Below, in pieces: positions 5,383-22,306 of a DNA stretch of 35,667 nucleotides (positions are counted from its first letter, which is position 1; the number at the start of each line of letters is the position of its first letter). The translations under genes and the position numbers were made by a program. The notes beneath the pieces were generated by a model. That model did no database searches. It saw only the letters and a list, made by a program, of their open reading frames with translations, and was not told the origin of the DNA. The stretch comes from a virus: the UHGV virus genome UHGV-0093623. One strand, 5' to 3'.

Positions 5383-6090
5383 TCACCGCTGCCAACCAAT
5401 AACCTGAAATAACCCCATTTTCGGGTGATACCAGCGAGTCCCTCGCGGTTCTGCTTCCTCCATAACCCGATAAAAAGCAGCCATAAACGGTTCCACAGCA
5501 ACAATTGCGCGACGTGACAACAATCCGTCCGGCGTCATGAACTCATGGGTGTCTGTAGGAATCTGATAGGCGTTCACCAGATTGCGGCATTTATCATCTG
5601 ACAAACCGGTTTTTGCTTTCAGTTGGCGATATCCGGCATAGCCCTCACGAATAGTGCCCTTTTTAATTTGCTCGACTGTTTCAGCAACGTGGCTGACTTT
5701 TTCTTCCACCTGAGTGATCCGTTTCTGCTGACGAACTGCTTCAAGAGCCATCGCGGCAACCATTTCGATTTCGCTCATTGGCTTACGGATCTGTTCTTCC
5801 AGTTCGCGCCAGCGATCTACCAGGCGAGCAGTGAATTCAGGACAGAGCTGTGCGACGACAATGATGCTGTCGCGCTTACCTTGTTCTCCTTCAAACAGGT
5901 AATGCTCATATTGAACTTTAAAACCTAAGTTATTGATTCTTTCGGAAACCTCAATTTGAGGAGACCGGACAACGCCACCTTTGGCTAATGTTTCAATAGT
6001 GCGTTTCACATTGTCATGACGTTTACCCACCAGCTCTGCGATCTCAACGCTGGTCATGGATGCTTTGCCGTTAAAAATTGCGGTGTTCAT
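5383..6090 (-). CDS. Rha-family phage regulatory protein
   Basis: 235 aa; N-terminal SVEIAELVGKRHDNVKRTIETL motif; AGGAGA RBS. Confidence 0.8.
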   Translation of the reverse strand: MNTAIFNGKASMTSVEIAELVGKRHDNVKRTIETLAKGGVVRSPQIEVSERINNLGFKVQYEHYLFEGEQGKRDSIIVVAQLCPEFTARLVDRWRELEEQIRKPMSEIEMVAAMALEAVRQQKRITQVEEKVSHVAETVEQIKKGTIREGYAGYRQLKAKTGLSDDKCRNLVNAYQIPTDTHEFMTPDGLLSRRAIVAVEPFMAAFYRVMEEAEPRGTRWYHPKMGLFQVIGWQR

Positions 6091-6314
6091 TGTTGGTCTC
6101 CTGTGGGCTTGTCATCTTCTGTATTCGCTAGACTTGGGTGTGTATATGGAATGCTCGGATCCAGATGACAAAGAATGGCAACATCCTCCGGAACACCTCG
6201 CGTTTTCCACTTTCCAACACCTTGACTGCCACGAGGCCTTCCTTTCTTTGGGAACCTGCGACCAATAGCGGCATTGGTTTTAAATTGAAATTTTAATATT
6301 TCATAAAGGGTCAT
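6087..6314 (-). CDS. hypothetical 75-aa ORF in the cro position
   Basis: ATG about 30 nt downstream of the predicted rightward promoter; stop overlaps the Rha ATG (ATGA); protein is Lys/Arg/Gly-rich with no obvious HTH. Confidence 0.3.
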   Translation of the reverse strand: MTLYEILKFQFKTNAAIGRRFPKKGRPRGSQGVGKWKTRGVPEDVAILCHLDPSIPYTHPSLANTEDDKPTGDQQ

Positions 6315-6330
6315 TCTTTAGTCTCACACC

Positions 6331-6418
6331 AGATACTTTGTTATCCAACGATGTTAACCGCGGGAATCCAAAGTATCAAGAAATTCTGTTACTTTAGTAT
6401 CAACAGCCATGAGAGGAG
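6331..6418. promoter_or_regulatory. divergent early promoter/operator region (OR-like)
   Basis: minus-strand TTGATA-N17-TAACAT (plus 6374-6379 and 6351-6356); three copies of a GTATCA-core motif (6332-6340 inverted, 6369-6377, 6396-6404); cI RBS GAGAGGAG at 6411-6418. Confidence 0.5.
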
Positions 6419-6425
6419 AAGAAAA

Positions 6426-7082
6426 ATGAAGTCTTTAGGTGAACGTCTCATCAACGCACGGCAAAAAGCTGGGTTAACACAAGATGCGTTGGCTAAAAAA
6501 GCTGGGATCACCAGAGTTGCAATCAGTAAAGCCGAGCAAGGCCTTACAAAAAGTTTCAACGGTGACACCCTTTTTAAAGTTGCAGCTGCACTGCGGTGTT
6601 CACCGCAGTGGCTTCAGAACGGAGATGAAAAAGATAAGCATTGGGAAAATAATGTTAAGAGCTGCCCACAGAGAGACACAGCACACTCTTACCCTGTAAT
6701 TAACTGGGTTCAGGCAGGATTATTCGCAACTTCTGGTGATGACTACAACATGTATGATCAGGATAATTGGAGGCATTCTGTAAAATACGCTGGTGAGAGG
6801 GGGTTCTGGCTGGAAGTGCACGGAGACTCAATGACTTCGCCCGTAGGAATAACATTTCCTGAAGGAATGTCGATCCTTGTCAACCCAGATAAAGAAGTTT
6901 TTTCAGGGTGTTACGTCATCGCCAGAAAAAAATCCACCAATGAAGCAACATTCAAAAAATATATTTCTGACATGGGAAAGGCGTTTCTAAAGCCCCTTAA
7001 TCCACAATATCCAATCATAGAAATGGACAATGATTGCGAAATAGTAGGTGTTGTGGTTGATGCCAGGTGGGATATTTTCTGA
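6426..7082 (+). CDS. CI-like prophage repressor (HTH_XRE + S24 LexA-like peptidase)
   Basis: HTH LTQDALAKKAGITRVAISKAEQG; C-terminal GDSM and downstream Lys (ARKK); start chosen at ATG 6426 with RBS. Confidence 0.85.
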   Translation: MKSLGERLINARQKAGLTQDALAKKAGITRVAISKAEQGLTKSFNGDTLFKVAAALRCSPQWLQNGDEKDKHWENNVKSCPQRDTAHSYPVINWVQAGLFATSGDDYNMYDQDNWRHSVKYAGERGFWLEVHGDSMTSPVGITFPEGMSILVNPDKEVFSGCYVIARKKSTNEATFKKYISDMGKAFLKPLNPQYPIIEMDNDCEIVGVVVDARWDIF

Positions 7083-7108
7083 CCAGACACAAAACACAAA
7101 AAGAAACC

Positions 7109-7181
7109 AAAGTATCAAAAATCACTTGCCACACCTTGATACCTTAGTTACCATAAAACAAAGTTCGTAACTGAGGTATCA
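7109..7181. promoter_or_regulatory. OL-like operator/promoter region downstream of cI
   Basis: GTATCAA at 7112-7118, inverted TTGATAC at 7136-7142, GGTATCA at 7175-7181; TTGCCA-N17-TACCAT at 7126-7154. Confidence 0.4.
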
Positions 7182-7185
7182 TCTC

Positions 7186-7689
7186 ATGATCAATAAAGCT
7201 ACAACTCTTGACTGTCTCGAAGAACTGAAAAACCTCGGCAGCCTCATTACACTAATAGCAAAAGCAACACCTGATGCTACGCTCTCTAGCGATATAGAGT
7301 CATGCGCAGGACTGGCATGGGATATGACAAATAGCATATCCAGAAAGCTATCGTCAGCAATGCTTTTACAGAACAAAAATTCTGCAATCAACAACCGTCT
7401 TCGCACCCAACGCGAAGCCTGCGGCTTAACAACCGCCGAACTCGCCAGGCTGCTCGATCTCGATGAAGAAATTATCATCCAGTGGGAGAGCGGAGAGTAT
7501 GAACCAACTATCAGTATGCTTATCCCACTGGCAAATATTCTTGGCTGCGATCCGATGTGGCTGTTAACTGGTGAGGTTACTCCTCCGGAGCAACCAAAAA
7601 GTGAGGAGCAGCAACACCATGACGCATCTCAACAAGTTTGCCCCTTATCTCGCGAAGCTCTTCTGCGGAAGAACCAATACCAATGGTGA
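7186..7689 (+). CDS. HTH_XRE-domain protein (167 aa), first gene of the leftward operon
   Basis: HTH segment LTTAELARLLDLDEEIIIQWESGEYEPTISMLIPLANILGCDPMWLLTGE; GAGGT RBS; true start could be an internal Met. Confidence 0.6.
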   Translation: MINKATTLDCLEELKNLGSLITLIAKATPDATLSSDIESCAGLAWDMTNSISRKLSSAMLLQNKNSAINNRLRTQREACGLTTAELARLLDLDEEIIIQWESGEYEPTISMLIPLANILGCDPMWLLTGEVTPPEQPKSEEQQHHDASQQVCPLSREALLRKNQYQW

Positions 7690-7817
7690 CATAATCGCCG
7701 CTTCGCCCTTCAAGGTACATGCGAACATTTTTATCAATCATTGCGGAAACAGTCTCAATATGAAAACACTTCTGAGACTCGCTATATAGCAGAACATATA
7801 AGTCAGCTGAGGAAGCC

Positions 7818-8183
7818 ATGAAAAAGTTCGAAAACATAACTGTTCTCCATGTTGATGACTTTGATTATACAAACCCGGAACTTCTCCCGGAGGTTGTAAA
7901 GGCAATAGATGTTGCCGATATAGTGATTAGAGAAAAGAGAATTGTCAAAAACAGGCTCGCATGCACTTCAGGAGCAATGACAGAAACAACCTCACAGCAA
8001 GATAATTACGAAGGCATTTGTCTGGAGCCTGATTCATTTGCGGTAAATGTTTATCATTTATTGCATGCAACACAGGTATTACATATGTCCAGTAATCACG
8101 AAACGAAAACACTCGGCAGCGAAATTCTGAGTTTTGCATGTGAGTATACAAAAGCTGCTGCCGAAAAAGAATTAGCGCAATAA
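7818..8183 (+). CDS. hypothetical 121-aa protein
   Basis: GAGGA 4 nt upstream of ATG. Confidence 0.6.
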   Translation: MKKFENITVLHVDDFDYTNPELLPEVVKAIDVADIVIREKRIVKNRLACTSGAMTETTSQQDNYEGICLEPDSFAVNVYHLLHATQVLHMSSNHETKTLGSEILSFACEYTKAAAEKELAQ

Positions 8184-8377: not shown

Positions 8378-8578
8378 ATGCATCAGAAAACAGCAGAACA
8401 CGAACAAACCAGAGTATTGCTGACCATCAAAAACGGGAAAGTAATATTCATTCGCCATGTTCATGACGATGAACTTGTAGGAACTCTTTCAACATTCCTG
8501 TTTATTGCAGAAAGGGCAGGATATGACGTTATTGCACCAGCAGATGAAGATGAAGATGAAGATGAAGATGAGGAATAA
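8378..8578 (+). CDS. hypothetical 66-aa protein with poly-acidic C-terminus (DEDEDEDEE)
   Basis: GGGAGA RBS; 5 nt before the next gene. Confidence 0.55.
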   Translation: MHQKTAEHEQTRVLLTIKNGKVIFIRHVHDDELVGTLSTFLFIAERAGYDVIAPADEDEDEDEDEE

Positions 8579-12659: not shown

Positions 12660-14510
12660 CCCAGTTAACATTACGCGTCCTGCAAGACGCTTAACATTAA
12701 TCTGAGGCCAATTTCATGCTAGACACATGTAGGTTAGCCTCTTACGTGCCGAAAGGCACGGAGAAGCAGGCTATTGTTAACACCAAGCTGTAATGTCCCC
12801 TTTGAACCATTCTAAAATGTCCCCAGACAATTCTCTGGGGGATTTTTCATGATCAAAGAGACTGTTACGATGAGTCATAAGGAACTCCACCGACTTCAGA
12901 TTATTCAGGAACAAGCTGCGGCACGCATTGGCATTTCTATTCGGCAGGTTAAACGTCTGGTGCAACGGTATAGAAATGAAGGGCCTTCTGCTCTGGTTTC
13001 CCACCGACGTGGAAAGCGTCCTAATAATTCCTTTTCTACTGAATTCAGAGCAACAGTAATTTCACTCCTCAAAGGCCGTTACGCTGATTTTGGACCTACG
13101 TTTGCGTGCGAAAAATTGCGCGAGATACACGGTTTATCTTTATCCGTTGAAACTCTCAGAAAGTGGATGATAGAAGAGGGGTTATGGCGTGAACGCCGTC
13201 GTAAAATTGCCCGTATATATCAACGCCGCATGCGACGACCATCTTACGGTGAACTGATCCAGATTGATGGCTCACCTCATGACTGGTTTGAAAATCGAGG
13301 CCCCAGATGTACACTGATCGTTTTCATTGATGATGCCACCAGTGCGTTGATGGCGTTGCGTTTTGTGCCTGCTGAAACAACCCGGGCTTACATGGAAACC
13401 CTCCGGGGTTACCTTAATGATCATGGCGTACCGCTCGCTCTCTACTCTGATAGACACAGTATATTCAGGGTAAATAACCCAGAGCGGGAAGGTGAGCTGA
13501 CCCAGTTCACTCGTGCGATAAAGACACTGGGCATCGAGCCAATCCATGCCAACAGCCCGCAGGCAAAAGGGCGGGTAGAGCGCGCCAATCAGACACTACA
13601 GGACAGGCTGGTCAAAGAAATGCGGCTTCAGAATATCAGTGATATTGAAACAGCAAATGCATGGTTGCCGACCTTTATTGAAGCCTATAACAACCGGTTC
13701 GCTACGTCGCCTCGTACTACTGATAATGCTCATCTTGATGTGCACCATTCTGAAGAGGAACTGGGTTATATCTTCAGCCTACAGGCGAAGCGCGTTCTGT
13801 CTAAAAATCTCACTTTCCAGTACAAAAGCAGTGCGTTTCAGGTACGCAGTGAGGGCCGGGGATATCGACTTAGGCATTCGGTTGTTACTGTATGCGAGAA
13901 CTTTGACGGTGAAATTAACGTTCTGTATGACGGGAAAGCGCTGGGCTGGGAAAAGTATGTTGATGGCCCGGAGCCTATACCACTGGATGATGAAAAGAGT
14001 GTCCATGAACGAGTGGATAATGCCCGTATTGATTTACGCTCAAAATACTATGTTAAACCTAAAGCTGACCATCCCTGGCTTACGCGCCGAACGCAAAGTC
14101 ATCAGCAAGTTAAGCCCCCGAAGTTACCTAAAAAGAAGCCTGATCCCGATAAAAAAGATTGAAACCAAGATCGATTCGGTTGAGTGCATATCCATTCATA
14201 GGGTAGATTCTTAAGTCGCGTTTCTGGTGTTCATTTTCGGGTGGTTTGTTACTTGTTTTACCGGGGATATGCCAGAAACGCGCTGAGTCAGTCTGGGCGG
14301 TGCGCGTAATGAGGCGTTATGGTAAATAGCCTATGCTAATGTCCGCTAAGAGCAAGAAGCGGAAGTTGGCAGTTTTGTGGACTGTCCCCACAAAAGTGAC
14401 TACAGAAATAGTTGCAATTCATAATTGATCATGGGTTGTCAGTTAAACTCGTGGCGATTTAAATAGACTAATTGGGAGTGCGTCCATTACTTATATCTTG
14501 TAATGTTAAC
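12660..14510. mobile_element. insertion sequence (approximate extent) carrying the DDE transposase
   Basis: candidate 12-bp terminal inverted repeat AGTTAACATTAC near 12663-12674 and its reverse complement near 14499-14510; boundaries not verified. Confidence 0.25.
12849..14162 (+). CDS. DDE-type transposase (N-terminal HTH + integrase-core fold), IS481/ISNCY-like
   Basis: 437 aa; N-terminal HTH region, central acidic residues in IQIDGSPHD and FIDDATS; family assignment tentative. Confidence 0.8.
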   Translation: MIKETVTMSHKELHRLQIIQEQAAARIGISIRQVKRLVQRYRNEGPSALVSHRRGKRPNNSFSTEFRATVISLLKGRYADFGPTFACEKLREIHGLSLSVETLRKWMIEEGLWRERRRKIARIYQRRMRRPSYGELIQIDGSPHDWFENRGPRCTLIVFIDDATSALMALRFVPAETTRAYMETLRGYLNDHGVPLALYSDRHSIFRVNNPEREGELTQFTRAIKTLGIEPIHANSPQAKGRVERANQTLQDRLVKEMRLQNISDIETANAWLPTFIEAYNNRFATSPRTTDNAHLDVHHSEEELGYIFSLQAKRVLSKNLTFQYKSSAFQVRSEGRGYRLRHSVVTVCENFDGEINVLYDGKALGWEKYVDGPEPIPLDDEKSVHERVDNARIDLRSKYYVKPKADHPWLTRRTQSHQQVKPPKLPKKKPDPDKKD

Positions 14511-14598
14511 TATCAGAAATGATACAAAGATAATATGTCTTTAAAGAAAAGGCTGATGGCGAAAAGTGGCCCGATGAGGGCCACAATACGGCTGTCAC

Positions 14599-14931
14599 TT
14601 AGACGTAAATATCAATGGTGCCAGCGGTATTTGTATCGTCTTTTTTCTCTTCTTTTTTATCAGGCTGAACTGTCGCGTCTTCATTCTTTTTCTCTGCCTG
14701 CTGCCTTAACAACTGCTCCAGTTGAGCCCAGAGGCTTTCAATTTGCTTCTGTACCAATGCAGCCATTTCTTTTTTCTGCTGTGTCGTCATCCCCTCTTCC
14801 GATGAGATTTTCCCAAGCTTTTCAGTCAGCACCTGAATTTGTCTTGTGATTTTGGCTATTTCTGATGTTCCTTCCGGGGCGGAGTTGTTTGAAATAACGG
14901 TTGAGGTATTTCCCTGAATTGTGACAGACAT
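14599..14931 (-). CDS. flxA: FlxA-like protein (110 aa)
   Basis: protein recognised as Qin-prophage FlxA-like; preceded by a consensus sigma-28 promoter. Confidence 0.8.
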   Translation of the reverse strand: MSVTIQGNTSTVISNNSAPEGTSEIAKITRQIQVLTEKLGKISSEEGMTTQQKKEMAALVQKQIESLWAQLEQLLRQQAEKKNEDATVQPDKKEEKKDDTNTAGTIDIYV

Positions 14932-14954
14932 AGATTTCTCCTTTTAAAAAAGCA

Positions 14955-14981
14955 CTATCGGCATGCACAAAAAAATCTTTA
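14955..14981 (-). promoter_or_regulatory. sigma-28 (FliA) class 3 promoter TAAAGATT-N11-GCCGATAG
   Basis: reverse complement of plus 14955-14981 matches the TAAAGTTT-N11-GCCGATAA consensus; sits about 25 nt upstream of the flxA ATG. Confidence 0.7.
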
Positions 14982-15133
14982 ATCGTATTTCTTGTGTCAT
15001 TAATTGTTTGATGTTCAGATTGTTTTCCTCGCGGGCTGGCGCGCCTCAGAAAGTAAAGCTTGTTGACAGGGGTAAACGTTCGGCAATAATTTTCTGCCGC
15101 ATGCGGGTGTTGCATAAAACGTGTTACGTTCCT

Positions 15134-15439
15134 TTATCGACAGGTCAGGTCACCGCTCACCCGCCGACGAGAAAGCAACACTGACATGCTAAAGCAAAAA
15201 ATAGATGAATAAGTTGAGTTGTGCATATGTAGCCTGACCGTCACAAAGTATATGGTGTCTGTACCAGTAAGATGATGGCCGGACTCTTTAAAAACGAGCT
15301 GACCTGCACAATACAGGATGGACTTAGCAATGGCTGCTCCTGGCACAAAGCGGACAGTGATCACCGTTCTTACGACTACTTTCTGACTTCCTTCGTGACT
15401 TGCCCTAAGCATGTTGTAGTGCGATACTTGTAATGACAT
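15134..15439 (-). CDS. hypothetical 101-aa protein (YdfV-like position)
   Basis: ORF track; position between flxA and relB as in Qin; no motif. Confidence 0.35.
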   Translation of the reverse strand: MSLQVSHYNMLRASHEGSQKVVVRTVITVRFVPGAAIAKSILYCAGQLVFKESGHHLTGTDTIYFVTVRLHMHNSTYSSIFCFSMSVLLSRRRVSGDLTCR

Positions 15440-15452
15440 TTGTAATTACAAG
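15427..15452 (+). promoter_or_regulatory. relBE operator/promoter inverted repeats
   Basis: cttgtaatgacatttgtaattacaag directly upstream of the relB ATG. Confidence 0.7.
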
Positions 15453-15463
15453 AGGTGTAAGAC

Positions 15464-15703
15464 ATGGGTAGCATTAACCTGCGTATTGACGATGAACTTA
15501 AAGCGCGTTCTTACGCCGCGCTTGAAAAAATGGGTGTAACTCCTTCTGAAGCGCTTCGTCTCATGCTCGAGTATATCGCTGACAATGAACGCTTGCCGTT
15601 CAAACAGACACTCCTGAGTGATGAAGATGCTGAACTTGTGGAGATAGTGAAAGAACGGCTTCGTAATCCTAAGCCAGTACGTGTGACGCTGGATGAACTC
15701 TGA
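15464..15703 (+). CDS. relB: RelB antitoxin
   Basis: 79 aa, MGSINLRIDDELKARSYA... recognised as E. coli RelB. Confidence 0.95.
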   Translation: MGSINLRIDDELKARSYAALEKMGVTPSEALRLMLEYIADNERLPFKQTLLSDEDAELVEIVKERLRNPKPVRVTLDEL

Positions 15704-15990
15704 TGGCGTATTTTCTGGATTTTGACGAGCGGGCACTAAAGGAATGGCGAAAGCTGGGCTCGACGGTACGTGAACAGTTGAAAAAGAAGCTGGTTGAAGT
15801 ACTTGAGTCACCCCGGATTGAAGCAAACAAGCTCCGTGGTATGCCTGATTGTTACAAGATTAAGCTCCGGTCTTCAGGCTATCGCCTTGTATACCAGGTT
15901 ATAGACGAGAAAGTTGTCGTTTTCGTGATTTCTGTTGGGAAAAGAGAACGCTCGGAAGTATATAGCGAGGCGGTCAAACGCATTCTCTGA
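15703..15990 (+). CDS. relE: RelE mRNA interferase toxin
   Basis: 95 aa, MAYFLDFDERALKEWRKLG... recognised as E. coli RelE; 1-nt overlap with relB. Confidence 0.95.
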   Translation: MAYFLDFDERALKEWRKLGSTVREQLKKKLVEVLESPRIEANKLRGMPDCYKIKLRSSGYRLVYQVIDEKVVVFVISVGKRERSEVYSEAVKRIL

Positions 15991-16061
15991 ACCAAAGCAT
16001 GACATCTCTGTTTCGCACCGAAGGTGACACTTCTGCTTTGCGTTGACAGGAGAAGCAGGCT

Positions 16062-16217
16062 ATGAAGCAGCAAAAGGCGATGTTAATCGCCCTGATCGTC
16101 ATCTGTTTAACCGTCATAGTGACGGCACTGGTAACGAGGAAAGACCTCTGCGAGGTACGAATCCGAACCGGCCAGACGGAGGTCGCTGTCTTCACAGCTT
16201 ACGAACCTGAGGAGTAA
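16062..16217 (+). CDS. hokD: Hok-family small membrane toxin HokD (RelF)
   Basis: 51 aa MKQQKAMLIALIVICLTVIVTALVTRKDLCEVRIRTGQTEVAVFTAYEPEE; not in ORF track (under 60 aa). Confidence 0.9.
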   Translation: MKQQKAMLIALIVICLTVIVTALVTRKDLCEVRIRTGQTEVAVFTAYEPEE

Positions 16218-16285
16218 GAGACCCGGCGGGGGAGAAATCCCTCGCCACCTCTGATGTGGCAGGCATCCTCAACGCACCCGCACTT

Positions 16286-16312
16286 AACCCGCTTCGGCGG
16301 GTTTTTGTTTTT
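16286..16312 (+). terminator. intrinsic terminator after hokD
   Basis: aacccgc-ttcg-gcgggtt followed by a T-run. Confidence 0.6.
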
Positions 16313-16433
16313 ATTTTCAACGCGTTTGAAGTTCTGGACGGTGCCGGAATAGAATCAAAAATACTTAAGTAGCGCGCAGGGATAAGAGGGATGGTCCCTT
16401 AAAGGGGAGAGCTAATTATCCGGAAGGATTCTG

Positions 16434-16685
16434 ATGATGAACATCGAAGAACTGCGTAAAATTTTTTGTGAAGATGGCCTCTATGCTGTGTGCGTTGAAA
16501 ATGGAAATCTTGTTAGTCATTACCGCATTATGTGTTTGCGAAAGAATGGGGCTGCGTTAATTAATTTTGTGGATGCTCGGGTCACGGACGGATTTATCTT
16601 GCGCGAAGGTGAGTTTGTCACTTCATTACAGGCATTGAAAGAGATCGGAATAAAAGCTGGCTTTTCTGCTTTTTCAGGAGAATAA
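16434..16685 (+). CDS. rem: Rem-like small protein (83 aa)
   Basis: position and length as Qin rem; weak recollection of sequence. Confidence 0.6.
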   Translation: MMNIEELRKIFCEDGLYAVCVENGNLVSHYRIMCLRKNGAALINFVDARVTDGFILREGEFVTSLQALKEIGIKAGFSAFSGE

Positions 16686-16751
16686 ACTCATCTACAATCT
16701 TGCGCGGGGCTGAACTCCCGCTGAGTAACACCGTGCCACCGGAGAAAACCG

Positions 16752-17030
16752 ATGGCACGCAACGCAAAATATTACAATTCTGATAATTCGCCCGTTCTTG
16801 CCTGCACGCACGGGCGGTATTCTCACGCATTCAAGTCTGAATGGTTCCGGCACCCTCCATGCACTGCAGAACAGGCCGAATGGCTGATTCATTCTTACCG
16901 CAGGCGCGGGTTCGAGGTTAAGAAAGCTCTCAGTCTCGACTATCGGCACTGGATAATCTCTGTCAGGCTGCCTTATTCCGAACGCCCACCACGTGCGTCC
17001 CGCACTTTCCAGCAACGGATCTGGAGGTAA
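16752..17030 (+). CDS. hypothetical 92-aa protein
   Basis: GGAGAAAA RBS; stop abuts the ydfU-like GTG start. Confidence 0.45.
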   Translation: MARNAKYYNSDNSPVLACTHGRYSHAFKSEWFRHPPCTAEQAEWLIHSYRRRGFEVKKALSLDYRHWIISVRLPYSERPPRASRTFQQRIWR

Positions 17031-17031
17031 C

Positions 17032-18081
17032 GTGCGGGTATTACTTAGACCTGTTCTGGTGCCTGAGCTTGGGCTGGTGGTCCTTAAGCCGGGCCGTGAA
17101 TCCATACAGATATTTCATAATCCTCGAGTGCTGGTGGAACCGGAACCAAAAAGCATGCGTAATCTGCCATCCGGAGTCGTTCCTGCCGTTCGCCAGCCGC
17201 TGGCGGAAGACAAAACATTGCTGCCGTTTTTTAGTAACGAACGGGTGATTCGTGCTGCTGGCGGCGTTGGCGCATTGTCCGACTGGCTATTACGTCATGT
17301 TACATCCTGCCAGTGGCCTAATGGCGATTACCATCACACTGAAACAGTCATTCACCGTTATGGTACCGGCGCAATGGTGTTGTGCTGGCACTGCGACAAC
17401 CAACTGCGTGACCAGACATCGGAATCACTGGAGCTGCTTGCTCAACAAAATCTGACAGCATGGGTGATTGACGTCATCCGTCACGCAATAAGCGGTACGC
17501 AGGAGCGGGAATTATCTTTGGCTGAATTATCCTGGTGGGCGGTCTGCAATCAGGTGGTGGATGCACTACCTGAGGCTGTATCGCGTCGTTCGCTGGGATT
17601 ACCAGCGGAAAAAATCTGCTCGGTGTACCGCGAAAGCGACATCGTACCGGGAGAGCAGACCGCCACCAGCATATTGAAACAACGCACAAAAAATCTTGCA
17701 CCGTTGCCTTACGCCCACCAGCAACAAAAATCACCACAGGAAAAGACGGTGGTAAGCATCACCGTTGATCCAGAGTCTCCGGAATCTTTCATGAAGCTGC
17801 CTAAACGTCGCCGCTGGGTTAAGGAGAAATACACACGTTGGGTTAAGACACAGCCGTGTGCTTGCTGCGGTATGCCAGCCGACGATCCGCATCATCTGAT
17901 TGGTCACGGGCAGGGCGGAATGGGAACAAAAGCACATGATCTCTTTGTGTTGCCTTTGTGCAGAAAGCATCACAACGAGCTGCATACGGATACAGTGGCA
18001 TTTGAAGATAAGTATGGCTCCCAACTGGAGCTGATATTTCGTTTTATCGATCGCGCGCTGGCAATTGGCGTACTGGCGTAA
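17032..18081 (+). CDS. ydfU: DUF968-type protein, YdfU-like (349 aa)
   Basis: GTG start with GGAGGT RBS gives 349 aa; Cys/His-rich C-terminus CACCGMPADDPHHLIGHG...CRKHHNELH. Confidence 0.7.
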   Translation: MRVLLRPVLVPELGLVVLKPGRESIQIFHNPRVLVEPEPKSMRNLPSGVVPAVRQPLAEDKTLLPFFSNERVIRAAGGVGALSDWLLRHVTSCQWPNGDYHHTETVIHRYGTGAMVLCWHCDNQLRDQTSESLELLAQQNLTAWVIDVIRHAISGTQERELSLAELSWWAVCNQVVDALPEAVSRRSLGLPAEKICSVYRESDIVPGEQTATSILKQRTKNLAPLPYAHQQQKSPQEKTVVSITVDPESPESFMKLPKRRRWVKEKYTRWVKTQPCACCGMPADDPHHLIGHGQGGMGTKAHDLFVLPLCRKHHNELHTDTVAFEDKYGSQLELIFRFIDRALAIGVLA

Positions 18082-18094
18082 GTGGAGAACGAGC

Positions 18095-18847
18095 ATGAAC
18101 CTTGAAGCCTTACCAAAATATTACTCCCCAAAATCTCCAAAATTGAGCGATGACGCTCCAGCGACAGGCACCGGTTGTTTAACAATTACGGATGTAATGG
18201 CAGCGCAGGGGATGGTGCAGTCGAAAGCACCACTTGGGTTGGCCTTATTTCTGGCAAAAGTTGGTGTTCAGGACCCTCAGTTTGCGATTGAAGGCCTGCT
18301 AAATTACGCGATGGCACTGAATAACCCGACATTGAACAAATTGAGTGAAGAAATCCGGTTACAGATTATTCCTTACCTCGTGAGTTTTGCCTTTGCTGAT
18401 TACTCCAGGTCTGCGGCAAGTAAGGCTCGCTGTGAGCATTGTTCAGGTACGGGATTTTATAATGTATTGCGCGAAGTGGTGAAACACTACAGACGCGGGG
18501 AATCTGTAATCAAGGAAGAATGGGTGAAGGAACTATGTCAGCATTGCCATGGTAAGGGCGAAGCCAGCACAGCGTGCAGAGGGTGTAAGGGTAAAGGGAT
18601 TGTTCTGGATGAAAAAAGAACCCGGTTTCATGGCGTACCGGTATATAAGATTTGTGGGCGTTGTAATGGAAACCGGTTTAGTCGTTTACCGACCACGCTG
18701 GCACGACGTCATGTCCAGAAGCTGGTACCAGACCTGACCGATTATCAGTGGTATAAGGGGTATGCGGACGTCATTGGTAAACTGGTAACAAAGTGCTGGC
18801 AGGAAGAAGCATACGCGGAAGCGCAATTGAGGAAGGTGACGAGATAA
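18095..18847 (+). CDS. quuQ: late-gene antiterminator Q-like (250 aa)
   Basis: Cys-rich zinc-binding region CEHCSGTG...CQHCHGKGE...CRGCKGKG...CGRCNGN; position before the lysis genes. Confidence 0.8.
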   Translation: MNLEALPKYYSPKSPKLSDDAPATGTGCLTITDVMAAQGMVQSKAPLGLALFLAKVGVQDPQFAIEGLLNYAMALNNPTLNKLSEEIRLQIIPYLVSFAFADYSRSAASKARCEHCSGTGFYNVLREVVKHYRRGESVIKEEWVKELCQHCHGKGEASTACRGCKGKGIVLDEKRTRFHGVPVYKICGRCNGNRFSRLPTTLARRHVQKLVPDLTDYQWYKGYADVIGKLVTKCWQEEAYAEAQLRKVTR

Positions 18848-18878
18848 ATGATTTTTGCTGAAGATGGCGACATGATGT

Positions 18879-18907
18879 TTGCATTTTTCAAAAAATATGG
18901 ATAAAAT
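18879..18907 (+). promoter_or_regulatory. candidate late promoter (PR'-like) TTGCAT-N17-TAAAAT
   Basis: sigma-70-like hexamers about 30 nt downstream of the Q stop. Confidence 0.45.
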
Positions 18908-18952
18908 TTTTTCAACGATGGGCTTTGTATACCCGACGTTAAGAAAAAGTAG

Positions 18953-18983
18953 AAAACCCGCTGATGAGCGGGTTTTGTGCTTT
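18953..18983 (+). terminator. intrinsic terminator (tR'-like)
   Basis: aaaacccgc-tgatga-gcgggtttt then gtgcttt. Confidence 0.55.
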
Positions 18984-19268
18984 AAATGGGGCAATGGTAA
19001 TGTTGAATCTCATCCCGGGACTCATGTCTGTTAACTTATTATTTAGCTGGTGACTTGGTTATTTGCCTGATGTTTAAAATGTTTTCTTCCAGTACAATGT
19101 CCCTAAACACAATGAGTCTGCTTATTATATTATTAGCAGAGCTATTACGGCCAAAGTACAGCATAAGCTTTTAAAGCCAATCAACCAGTCATCAAGACAG
19201 ACGGGGTTATTCATAAAAACTCTCCATGTGTGATCCGATGGGGCCTGAAATTAAAGCTTTAATATAGC

Positions 19269-19481
19269 TCATGAAAGGTAAACATTGGCAGCTGAAGGGC
19301 CACGCAGACCATTTATCCGGCAAAATTCCACGCGTAATCCGGTGGTAATTTCTTCTGCATCGCGGAGATTGAGCGCTGAAACATGAAGCTGGACATCGAT
19401 ACGACCATCGGATGGGGTGATAAGACCCTTGCCGCTTTTGCCGTCAAAGGTTTTGACAATTCCTGTCATTTTACGGGACAA
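19269..19481 (-). CDS. cspF: cold-shock-domain protein CspF
   Basis: 70 aa, CSD fold, [19 protein letters not shown]. Confidence 0.85.
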
Positions 19482-19781
19482 AAAAATTCCTTAATACTGA
19501 TAACTTGGCGCACTATACACACGTTCCTGAAGAAAGCTATAGTTTTTTGATGGGGTTGAAGATGGCTGGATGTCTAAAATAAACATTGCTTCATATGTTC
19601 AACTATGCGTTAATGATTGCGTCGGTTTGAAGAACAGACGATATACGAAGTAGTTTACTAAAGCAGTTCTCATTTCAGGTGTTATTCACTTATTCCTTCT
19701 TTGAGTCTCTCCAATTAAGTACGAAGTCGTTTCTGTTATGCAAACCATTTATGCCGAAAGGCTCAAGTTAAGGAATGTAGA

Positions 19782-19997
19782 ATGTCAAATAAAATGACTG
19801 GTTTAGTAAAATGGTTTAACGCTGATAAAGGTTTCGGCTTTATTTCTCCTGTTGATGGTAGTAAAGATGTGTTTGTGCATTTTTCTGCGATTCAGAATGA
19901 TAATTATCGAACCTTATTTGAAGGTCAAAAGGTTACCTTCTCTATAGAGAGTGGTGCTAAAGGTCCTGCAGCAGCAAATGTCATCATTACTGATTAA
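19782..19997 (+). CDS. cspB: cold-shock protein CspB
   Basis: 71 aa, [21 protein letters not shown]... with RNP motifs. Confidence 0.9.
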
Positions 19998-20277
19998 AAT
20001 TCATCGCTCGTCTGTATACGATAACGAAGAAGGCTGATGCCTGAGTAGAGATACGGACAGAGTAGTGAATATTGGATCTCTTTAATAAAAAGTAAGGAGG
20101 TCCAATACATGAAACAATGGCTAGCATATTTGGCAAAATCTTAATCAGGAAAAGTATGCTAACCATTGTGGTGAAGTGCAGGTTTGCTGCATGAATAGTT
20201 TTACAGCAGAAGCTAACTGCTGGCATGGCAAAACAAAGTGCGTAAGTGGATGACTCCCACAAAAAGCACCACAATCT

Positions 20278-20301
20278 CAAACCCGCTCAGGCGGGTTTTT
20301 T
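20278..20301 (+). terminator. intrinsic terminator
   Basis: aaacccgc-tcag-gcgggtttttt. Confidence 0.5.
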
Positions 20302-20360
20302 ATTATCTGCTTTAAATATATTATTAAAATATAAAAAATACTTGTTACTAATAAAATCAA

Positions 20361-20531
20361 TCAGGCTACAGCTTTAAGATTTGTCTGGAATACTTTGTTG
20401 CAATGAGGGCAGATCAAAAGGGCACCTTTTTGTACTCTTGAAAAACTGTGTTCTGACTCTTGGGTGCAGTTTGGGCAGGAACATTTAACGAGATAATTAC
20501 GGCGTGATTTTGAGTTTTTACGTTCTGACAT
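20361..20531 (-). CDS. small zinc-ribbon protein (56 aa from internal ATG)
   Basis: CxxC...CxxC (CPNCTQ...CPHCNK); AGGA 9 nt upstream of ATG 20531. Confidence 0.5.
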   Translation of the reverse strand: MSERKNSKSRRNYLVKCSCPNCTQESEHSFSRVQKGALLICPHCNKVFQTNLKAVA

Positions 20532-20750
20532 AGGCTTTTCCTGTATAAATGGCCGTATACAGTACACTAAATATGAAAACATTTCTCGTATTATTATTTT
20601 ATATATGACTTTCTTTCAAAATAATTACCCACATTTTTAATGTGTATGTTTTTTTAGCGCCGTTGAGAACAACGTGTGCTGTCAAAACTACCCCGTAGAC
20701 TCCGAGCTTTTCAAACATATTGCACCATCCGTGTACATCGGGGTGAGGAT

Positions 20751-20966
20751 ATGAAATCAATGGATAAGTTAACAACAGGTGTTGCCTATGGCACATCGGC
20801 GGGTAATGCTGGTTTCTGGGCATTGCAGTTACTCGATAAAGTAACTCCGTCACAGTGGGCTGCAATCGGTGTGCTGGGTAGCCTGGTTTTTGGCCTGCTG
20901 ACGTATCTGACAAATCTTTATTTCAAGATTAAAGAAGACAGGCGTAAGGCTGCGAGAGGAGAGTAA
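20751..20966 (+). CDS. essQ: class II holin (pinholin, S21-like) with dual start MKSM
   Basis: 71 aa; GAGGA RBS; two hydrophobic helices; adjacent to a SAR endolysin. Confidence 0.85.
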
Positions 20967-20970
20967 TCCA

Positions 20971-21278
20971 ATGACTCAAGACTATGAACTGGTTGTGAAA
21001 GGAGTCCGTAATTTTGAGAATAAAGTTACGGTAACTGTAGCCTTACAGGACAAAGAACGCTTTGACGGTGAAATTTTTGACCTGGATGTCGCCATGGACC
21101 GTGTTGAAGGAGCTGCGCTGGAGTTTTATGAGGCAGCAGCCAGAAGGAGCGTCCGGCAAGTCTTCCTGGAAGTAGCAGAAAAATTGTCAGAAAAAGTTGA
21201 GTCTTATCTGCAGCATCAGTACTCCTTTAAGATTGAAAATCCTGCCAATAAGCACGAGCGTCCTCATCATAAATATCT

Positions 21279-21282
<4 letters not shown>
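20971..21282 (+). CDS. ydfR: DUF1327-type protein, YdfR-like (103 aa)
   Basis: position between holin and endolysin as in Qin; length match. Confidence 0.7.

Positions 21283-22306
<1,024 letters not shown>

Follow-up and report, generated by a model that had tools for sequence, protein, structure and literature searches.

Putative Operators and a Candidate Early-Left Promoter Downstream of the cI Gene of a phiP27-like Lambdoid Prophage

Introduction

In the window analysed here, a stretch of 35,667 nucleotides from virus genome UHGV-0093623, the stop codon of a cI repressor gene at 7082 is followed at 7186 by the ATG of a gene for a helix-turn-helix (HTH) protein, and copies of a short motif and a candidate promoter lie in between. 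The first-pass annotation read three GTATCA copies in this gap as a second, OL-like operator cluster. The question raised by the locus is whether the gap holds the operators and the promoter of an early-left operon and, if so, which of the motif copies are operators and which protein reads them. We propose that 7102-7181 is the early-left operator-promoter region (OL/PL equivalent) of a phiP27-like lambdoid prophage and put the probability of this reading at about 0.85; CI binding and repression are what we infer from the sequence. The OL-like reading is supported, in that it agrees with every computational test available. The two genes that border the gap are the following.

6426..7082, + strand: cI repressor gene; 218 aa, with an N-terminal HTH_3 and a C-terminal Peptidase_S24 domain (Pfam)
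7186..7689, + strand: L10 gene, first of the early-left operon; 167 aa, XRE-type HTH

Results

A Bipartite Pattern in Both Gaps Flanking cI

The motif copies lie exactly where the first-pass annotation had placed them (GTATCAA at 7112-7118, inverted TTGATAC at 7136-7142 and GGTATCA at 7175-7181). The window-wide enrichment that it had suggested counting was not significant for bare GTATCA, with 19 copies against 13 +/- 3.8 expected and 7 of 100 shuffles reaching 19, whereas the clustering of copies beside cI was much tighter than chance would give. The two cI-flanking gaps, 214 bp in all, hold five of the 19, where 0.11 would be expected (Poisson P = 1.5e-7), and three fall in the 103-bp gap between cI and 7186 (P ~1e-5). 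Because the enrichment of the bare 6-mer is not significant, we relied on the clustering and on a bipartite pattern.

Repeat analysis revealed a longer site, of which each GTATCA makes up the right half. The copies are real, but the 6-7 bp word taken as the motif is just one half of a 14-16 bp pseudo-palindrome. Ideal palindromes occur in relatives (GATAC-TTAA-GTATC in L002, a Stx2a phage, and GATAC-TTTA-GTATC in contig L106), and the operator is therefore described as a pseudo-palindrome of 14-16 bp, (T)GATAC-N4-GTATC(A). Its half-sites are 10 bp apart centre to centre, one helical turn, as expected for an HTH dimer. The operator consensus of these putative CI sites is TGATAC-TTTA-GTATCA (16 bp). 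The degenerate form GWWWC-N4-GTATC has five matches in 35.7 kb, at 6364, 6388, 7103, 7138 (minus strand) and 7167, all of them in the cI-flanking gaps; 0.28 were expected, and 0 of 100 shuffles reached five. This confinement to both gaps bears out the earlier view that operator clusters stand on both sides of the repressor gene, as in lambda. Palindrome matches with at most one mismatch are likewise all within the two gaps, and one of them, GATACTTTGTTATC at 6332, joins the list as the sixth site once a single mismatch to the full palindrome is allowed. All three copies of the exact 8-mer AGTATCAA in the window lie in these two gaps. The sites are as follows.

6331..6402, no strand assigned: OR cluster in the cro-cI gap; sites 6331-6346, 6363-6378 and 6387-6402
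7102..7117, + strand: putative operator S4, AGAAACCAAAGTATCA; about -59 to -44 of the predicted promoter; contains GTATCAA
7137..7152, minus strand: putative operator S5, TGATACCTTAGTTACC on the + strand; -24 to -9; contains TTGATAC
7166..7181, + strand: site S6, CGTAACTGAGGTATCA; +6 to +21; contains GGTATCA and the Shine-Dalgarno GAGG (7173-7176)

The positions of S4, S5 and S6 relative to the promoter depend on the predicted start, which was placed near 7161 from the usual distance between a -10 hexamer and a start.

A symmetrised weight matrix, trained only on the three sites of the cro-cI gap (OR), was scored over about 35,650 16-mer positions. S4 and S5 were, in that order, the two best non-training 16-mers in the window, and S6 ranked 9-10. 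S4 and the OR site at 6364-6382 share 89% identity across 19 nt, and at the S4 position L106 carries a perfect GATACTTTAGTATC. The claim of an OL-like second cluster is upheld by these top matches to a matrix built from OR sites only, and by the retention of the architecture in relatives whose CI proteins are 86%, 68% and 51% identical. As to the three copies counted in that cluster, the first two fall within S4 and S5, while the third (7175-7181) belongs to the weakest operator candidate and is perhaps part of an RNA element. S6 fits GWWWC-N4-GTATC and is an inverted near-copy of S5. Two points speak against S6 as an operator, its poor OR-matrix score and its absence from L190, a relative described below. 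From its sequence, S6 may be a third operator, the 3' arm of a hairpin that hides the ribosome-binding site (RBS), or both. Since the left half-sites are degenerate (GAAAC, GTAAC, GAATC), affinities could differ widely.

In the OR cluster, the two sites nearest cI (6363-6378 and 6387-6402) are 24 bp apart centre to centre. A candidate cro promoter, TTGATA-17-TAACAT, lies on the minus strand with its -35 hexamer inside the middle site (6363-6378). With three sites, the cro-cI gap looks like an OR1/OR2/OR3 layout. A further candidate at 6311-6326, which covers the start codon of cro, had a high matrix score and was dropped; it is not conserved in L002, L003 and L106.

The Predicted Promoter

A promoter scan independently recovered the candidate promoter of the first-pass annotation, TTGCCA-N17-TACCAT (7126-7154, + strand), here called predicted PL.

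7126..7131, + strand: -35 hexamer TTGCCA of predicted PL (promoter scan)
7149..7154, + strand: -10 hexamer TACCAT of predicted PL (promoter scan); predicted start near 7161

Predicted PL matches the consensus at 9/12 positions. The scan returned about as many such matches in shuffled sequence; support for PL comes from conservation and position. We compared 29 distinct variants of the cI-to-L10 gap, drawn from phage records, IMG/VR contigs and one E. coli genome. The -10 hexamer TACCAT was invariant (29/29), and the -35 hexamer was TTGCCA, TTGCCC or TTGTCA. Such conservation of the hexamers, on the + strand and ahead of 7186, agrees with the earlier proposal that this promoter feeds the HTH gene. 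S5 fills the promoter spacer and overlaps the predicted -10 hexamer. Promoters occur at the same position in other immunity types (TTGACA-17-TAATAT in PhiR49_2 and TTGACA-17-TAACAT in phi467), and other immunity types of the phiP27-like group carry their own repeated palindromes there.

Alternatively, the gap may hold no separate promoter. L10 would then be co-transcribed with cI from the maintenance promoter, and the motifs would be a distal anchor for looping or would have no function. The modest promoter match and the lack of a predicted terminator after cI fit this idea. It is contradicted by the invariant -10 and nearly invariant -35 hexamers of the 29 gap variants, and by PhiR49_2, a Serratia prophage and L190, in which a clear terminator follows the repressor gene and a promoter is nevertheless present at this position. 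Moreover, a hairpin predicted in the gap would block translation of L10 from a co-transcript. We regard the absence of a separate promoter as very improbable and retain the OL/PL reading, in which L10 would be served by PL.

The Repressor and Its Neighbors

The alignment of CI with lambda repressor (3bdn, E = 8.7e-34) spans the full length of the protein, and the VQAG cleavage motif, GDSM serine and FKKY lysine of CI align with lambda CI. RefSeq annotates the cI product (WP_000838344.1) as a LexA family protein. The N-terminal HTH is nearest to the 434/P22 type (434 Cro, 1e-8; P22 C2, 1.4e-8), and the closest characterised repressors in the phage collection were P22-c2-like, with 44% identity to CI. 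Because CI is a full-length homologue of lambda CI, we assign the region to the OL/PL type. A perfect 10-nt inverted repeat with a 2-nt gap, CACTGCGGTG/CACCGCAGTG, is found at 6589-6610 within the cI coding sequence; it is not conserved in the Stx2a-phage relative L002.

Gene order, read in the window and in the RefSeq strain CEA601S, is lambdoid. In CEA601S, Q, replication genes, Rha-family genes and the Cro-like gene are on one side of cI, and L10, small ORFs, xis and int on the other. The region is thus placed as an OL/PL region would be, on the side opposite cro/OR and directed away from cI toward xis/int. It contains at least two copies of the OR operator sequence, S5 overlaps the predicted core promoter, and the adjacent repressor is of the CI/LexA type, an HTH plus S24 self-cleaving protein by Pfam and by alignment with lambda CI. 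One feature, which is not strictly defining, differs: the first gene does not encode an N-type antiterminator with nutL. The protein at the Cro position (75 aa, 6087-6314, minus strand) has conserved counterparts next to the repressor in both L190 and the Serratia relative. It matched no Pfam or NCBIfam family, and its sole match was phrog_4749, of unknown function.

Conservation of the Gap and Co-variation with the Repressor

Among the 29 gap variants, 17 of 57 columns were variable in the operators and promoter hexamers as against 39 of 46 elsewhere (Fisher 1.6e-8). S5 is nearly invariant, and the DNA between the sites drifts. Sixty-nine IMG/VR contigs each contain a single copy of an 18-mer spanning S5 and the -10 hexamer. 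For 66 of these contigs the copy belongs to a PL region of this operator type and adjoins a cI or an L10 of this kind, and the remaining three matches are unrelated, with a different sequence context. Of 5,426 complete E. coli genomes, 197 carry the gap sequence, each in one copy. Several hundred E. coli genomes contain the region, which shares 96% identity with Stx2e phage phiP27. Three relatives, with CI proteins of decreasing identity, were informative.

L106: CI 86% identical; same recognition helix; same architecture with different filler DNA
L190: CI 68% identical; TRVAISKAE kept, with one change just after it; S4, S5 and TACCAT kept, S6 absent
Serratia sp. Ag1 prophage: CI 51% identical; helix SRMAISKIEMG; TAAAC-TTTA-GTTTA in both gaps

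In L106 the promoter is TTGCCC-17-TACCAT, and S4 and S5 are kept. In L190 the downstream gene is just 27% identical despite the retained S4, S5 and TACCAT. In Serratia sp. Ag1, two copies of TAAAC-TTTA-GTTTA flank the -35 hexamer of TTGAAC-17-TACAGT. As judged from these comparisons, the operator sequence tracks the recognition helix, changing only in the relative whose helix changes substantially.

L10 and the Question of Another Regulator

The HTH of L10 was identified by Pfam (HTH_3, residues 72-126), and the conserved XRE-type region covers about residues 68-130; it is preceded by an N-terminal helical domain of about 65 aa. L10 belongs to phrog_4739, of unknown function, and its PHROG relatives are labelled 'CII-like'. 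Searches against Pfam, PHROG and NCBIfam gave no N-like match, and NCBIfam returned just a sub-threshold DicA-like HTH. L10 as an N-type antiterminator was rejected, given its XRE-type HTH and the lack of an N-like match. An AlphaFold2 model (mean pLDDT 68) consisted of a helical hairpin and an HTH and offered no functional lead. Members of the L10 family from at least six immunity types share a nearly identical HTH, but their N-terminal domains differ from one repressor type to the next. L190 encodes the N-terminal domain alone, with no HTH (27% identity, E = 4e-6). This pattern hints at an immunity-specific function of L10, which might for example modulate its matching repressor or the switch. 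The L10 relatives L121, L122, L123, L125, L127, L130 and L190 form a modular family, some members of which have a second HTH.

Two observations concern the sequence downstream of L10. Over its residues 69-115, the protein encoded at 7818-8183 (+ strand; L08) matches the N-terminal domain of the PhiR49_2 homologue of L10 (43% identity, E = 9e-10), PhiR49_2 being a phage of a different immunity type. The small helical domain therefore recurs within the early-left operon. A 66-aa ORF at 8378-8578 (+ strand) ends in a strongly acidic run, ADEDEDEDEDEE.

L10 has an HTH and is encoded directly behind the sites, and the Cro-like gene, like cI, diverges in the Serratia relative. The sites might thus be read by a regulator other than CI, either the 75-aa Cro-like protein alone or L10 acting on its own gene. 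Because the Cro-like gene diverges as well, co-variation alone cannot separate CI from Cro. Lambda Cro uses the operators of CI, so the Cro-like protein probably binds here also, and by this analogy we expect it to share the same sites. The HTH of L10 is almost identical across types in which the sequences at the S5 and S6 positions are completely different, so L10 cannot read S5/S6, and it was rejected as their reader. L190, which lacks the L10 HTH, still keeps S4 and S5. Furthermore, a site over the -10 hexamer of an early lytic promoter, beside a gene for a LexA-type repressor, is a classic repressor target. A reader other than CI is in our judgment improbable, and CI is retained as the putative ligand of S4 and S5 in the OL/PL reading.

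A Predicted Hairpin Formed by S5 and S6

S5 and S6 are complementary at 15/15 positions, with one G.U and with their 4-nt spacers included, and a hairpin is predicted in RNA that crosses the gap.

7137..7181, + strand: predicted RNA hairpin; arms 7137-7151 and 7167-7181, 15 bp; 15-nt loop

The centroid structure has -20 kcal/mol (z -2.8). The 3' arm contains the L10 Shine-Dalgarno, and the loop contains the -10 hexamer and the predicted PL start. RNA of the length made from PL had no significant predicted structure. No terminator-like site was found in 7083-7185 by a built-in terminator scan or by our own scan, which was used because the built-in one missed a GCCGG..CCGGC-T7 terminator in L190. 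A comparison of 6200-7900 with Rfam returned no match. We rejected the idea that the hairpin is an intrinsic terminator, since no U-run follows it. Equivalent hairpins that cover the Shine-Dalgarno were found in L002, in L106 and in two immunity types of unrelated sequence. Four stem substitutions occur in the 29 gap variants, of which three lead to G.U and one to a mismatch, with no double compensatory change.

With no terminator predicted after cI, maintenance transcripts should enter the hairpin element; in these read-through transcripts the S5 and S6 RNA would pair and bury the L10 Shine-Dalgarno, leaving L10 untranslated. Transcripts from PL, starting within the loop, would have no 5' arm, and therefore they alone would be translated. 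The S5/S6 repeat could then act mainly as RNA. S6 would pair with S5 in cI read-through RNA and hide the L10 RBS, in a manner like that of IS10, but would be no working CI operator, and the OL operators would be S4 and S5. This reading overlaps the OL/PL reading and differs from it solely on S6.

Several findings argue for it. The 15-bp stem covers GAGG (7173-7176), the predicted PL start is in the loop, and the stretch from cI to L10 has no predicted terminator. Complementarity extends to the 4-nt spacers of S5 and S6 (with the one G.U), though operators need not share spacers. L190, with the same operator type and a terminator after cI, lacks S6. Among nine immunity-region types, strong hairpins over the Shine-Dalgarno were present in 3/3 without a terminator vs 1/6 with one (Fisher 0.048), although these types are not phylogenetically independent. 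In phi467 and PhiR49_2 the stems extend past the operator half-site, and CACC pairs with the Shine-Dalgarno GGTG. The three of four stem substitutions that give G.U pairs also fit. On the other side, two copies of any near-palindromic operator are complementary by construction, the 29 gap variants contain no double compensatory change, and the PL start is predicted rather than mapped. S6 is fully conserved wherever this L10 type is present, which fits an operator or a plain RBS constraint equally well. We consider S6 as mainly an RNA element a plausible minority reading, and one that leaves S4 and S5 as the operators of the OL/PL region.

The two functions might also be combined, with S5/S6 dual-coded: as DNA the repeat would bind CI around the PL start, and as RNA in the unterminated cI transcript it would silence the first PL gene. 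This is a tentative suggestion, which we think rather unlikely. If dual coding were true, the repressor mRNA itself would protect the lysogen against a gene that has to be kept silent.

Discussion

Our results fit the following model of the early-left region. In a lysogen, CI dimers would bind the 16-bp pseudo-palindromes S4 and S5, with S4 bound just upstream of the -35 hexamer. CI at S5 would cover the spacer and the -10 hexamer and exclude RNA polymerase from PL, and the two sites together would silence the early-left operon, from L10 through xis and int. With RNA polymerase kept off PL, the operon would stay silent until RecA-stimulated (SOS) self-cleavage of CI. S6 is possibly a weaker third operator. 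With three sites of the same operator type in the cro-cI gap, the switch has the two-sided layout of lambda.

A lambda-like layout is ordinary in itself. The operators of the phiP27-like family have not been described before in the literature searched. A search for phiP27 operators and for the site sequences, with the original phiP27 paper outside its scope, found no operator description, and no binding, footprint, reporter or start-site report was found for this immunity type. The consensus, the candidate PL and the site coordinates make the switch directly testable and homo-immunity predictable from sequence. Relatives of the window include Stx1a, Stx2a and Stx2e converting phages. The immunity type is common, and in Stx converting phages the control of early promoters governs induction and hence toxin release. 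If fold-back of the S5/S6 RNA proved true, it would be a compact way for a prophage to forgo a terminator after cI and keep its first lytic gene untranslated.

The surroundings of the early region were also noted. From inside the integrase gene (12849-14162) onward, about 13365-21500 is 99.9% identical to PhiR42_1, a Qin-like phage with flxA, ydfV, relBE, rem, ydfU, Q and lysis genes, so that the phiP27-like early region abuts a Qin-like late region. The PhiR42_1 record annotates just the 3' part of the integrase, as 'transposase'. The orientation at the early/late junction is unusual, with int followed by Q and the lysis genes on the same strand. This arrangement suggests nested or recombined prophages at the junction. 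The same early region is found at yecE in other genomes.

Comparison with Known Systems

Lambda OL has three 17-bp operators for the CI repressor and takes part in OL-OR looping, and lambda Cro shares the operators with CI. The region described here resembles it in having a homologous full-length CI, operator clusters on both sides of cI, a predicted PL that faces away from cI into the recombination/integration operon, and an operator that overlaps the core promoter. The 24 bp between the centres of the two best OR sites is also the OR1-OR2 spacing of lambda. In contrast to lambda, the putative operators measure 14-16 bp (GATAC-N4-GTATC), and no terminator is predicted after cI. The upstream site does not sit on the -35 hexamer but beyond it, and another site is placed past the predicted start, over the RBS. 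The OL and OR clusters are about 0.74 kb apart, against 2.4 kb in lambda, and there is no rexAB between them; in lambda, rexAB is co-transcribed with cI from the maintenance promoter. In lambda, P22 and 933W the first gene encodes an N-type antiterminator and is accompanied by nutL, whereas here it encodes an HTH protein.

Looping between the two clusters, over cI and through CI octamers, is possible to judge from the homology of the CI C-terminal domain to that of lambda CI. Phage 933W does not loop (PMC8136144), which means that C-terminal homology to lambda CI is insufficient for looping. Since the OL spacings are 35 and 29 bp centre to centre as against 24 bp between the two OR sites, lambda-like cooperative pairing is uncertain.

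The 434 cI repressor has 14-bp operators, and P22 has a c2 repressor with its OL/PL. The present system is like 434 and P22 in its type of N-terminal HTH domain, in its short palindromes, each built from two half-sites around a 4-bp centre, and in a repressor gene directly flanked by OR and OL. It is unlike them in its half-site sequence and in a CI C-terminal domain closer to that of lambda CI, and its downstream gene is L10, whereas P22 has gene 24, an N analogue. In the Stx phages 933W, whose OL has two operators, and H-19B, operator counts per cluster differ from three (PMC8065619). The present prophage is likewise an E. coli lambdoid phage, and its clusters may likewise not all have three operators. 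It differs from 933W and H-19B in its immunity specificity, and in that operators were mapped experimentally there and are predicted from sequence here.

The predicted hairpin has its own precedent in the fold-back inhibition of IS10 and IS50, where sequestration of the RBS protects a gene from outside transcription. As in those elements, it would reach upstream of the gene's own predicted start, so only read-through RNA would hide the RBS. Unlike in IS10 and IS50, it is predicted from sequence, its arms are also operator-like, and the transcript that would enter it from upstream is the repressor mRNA.
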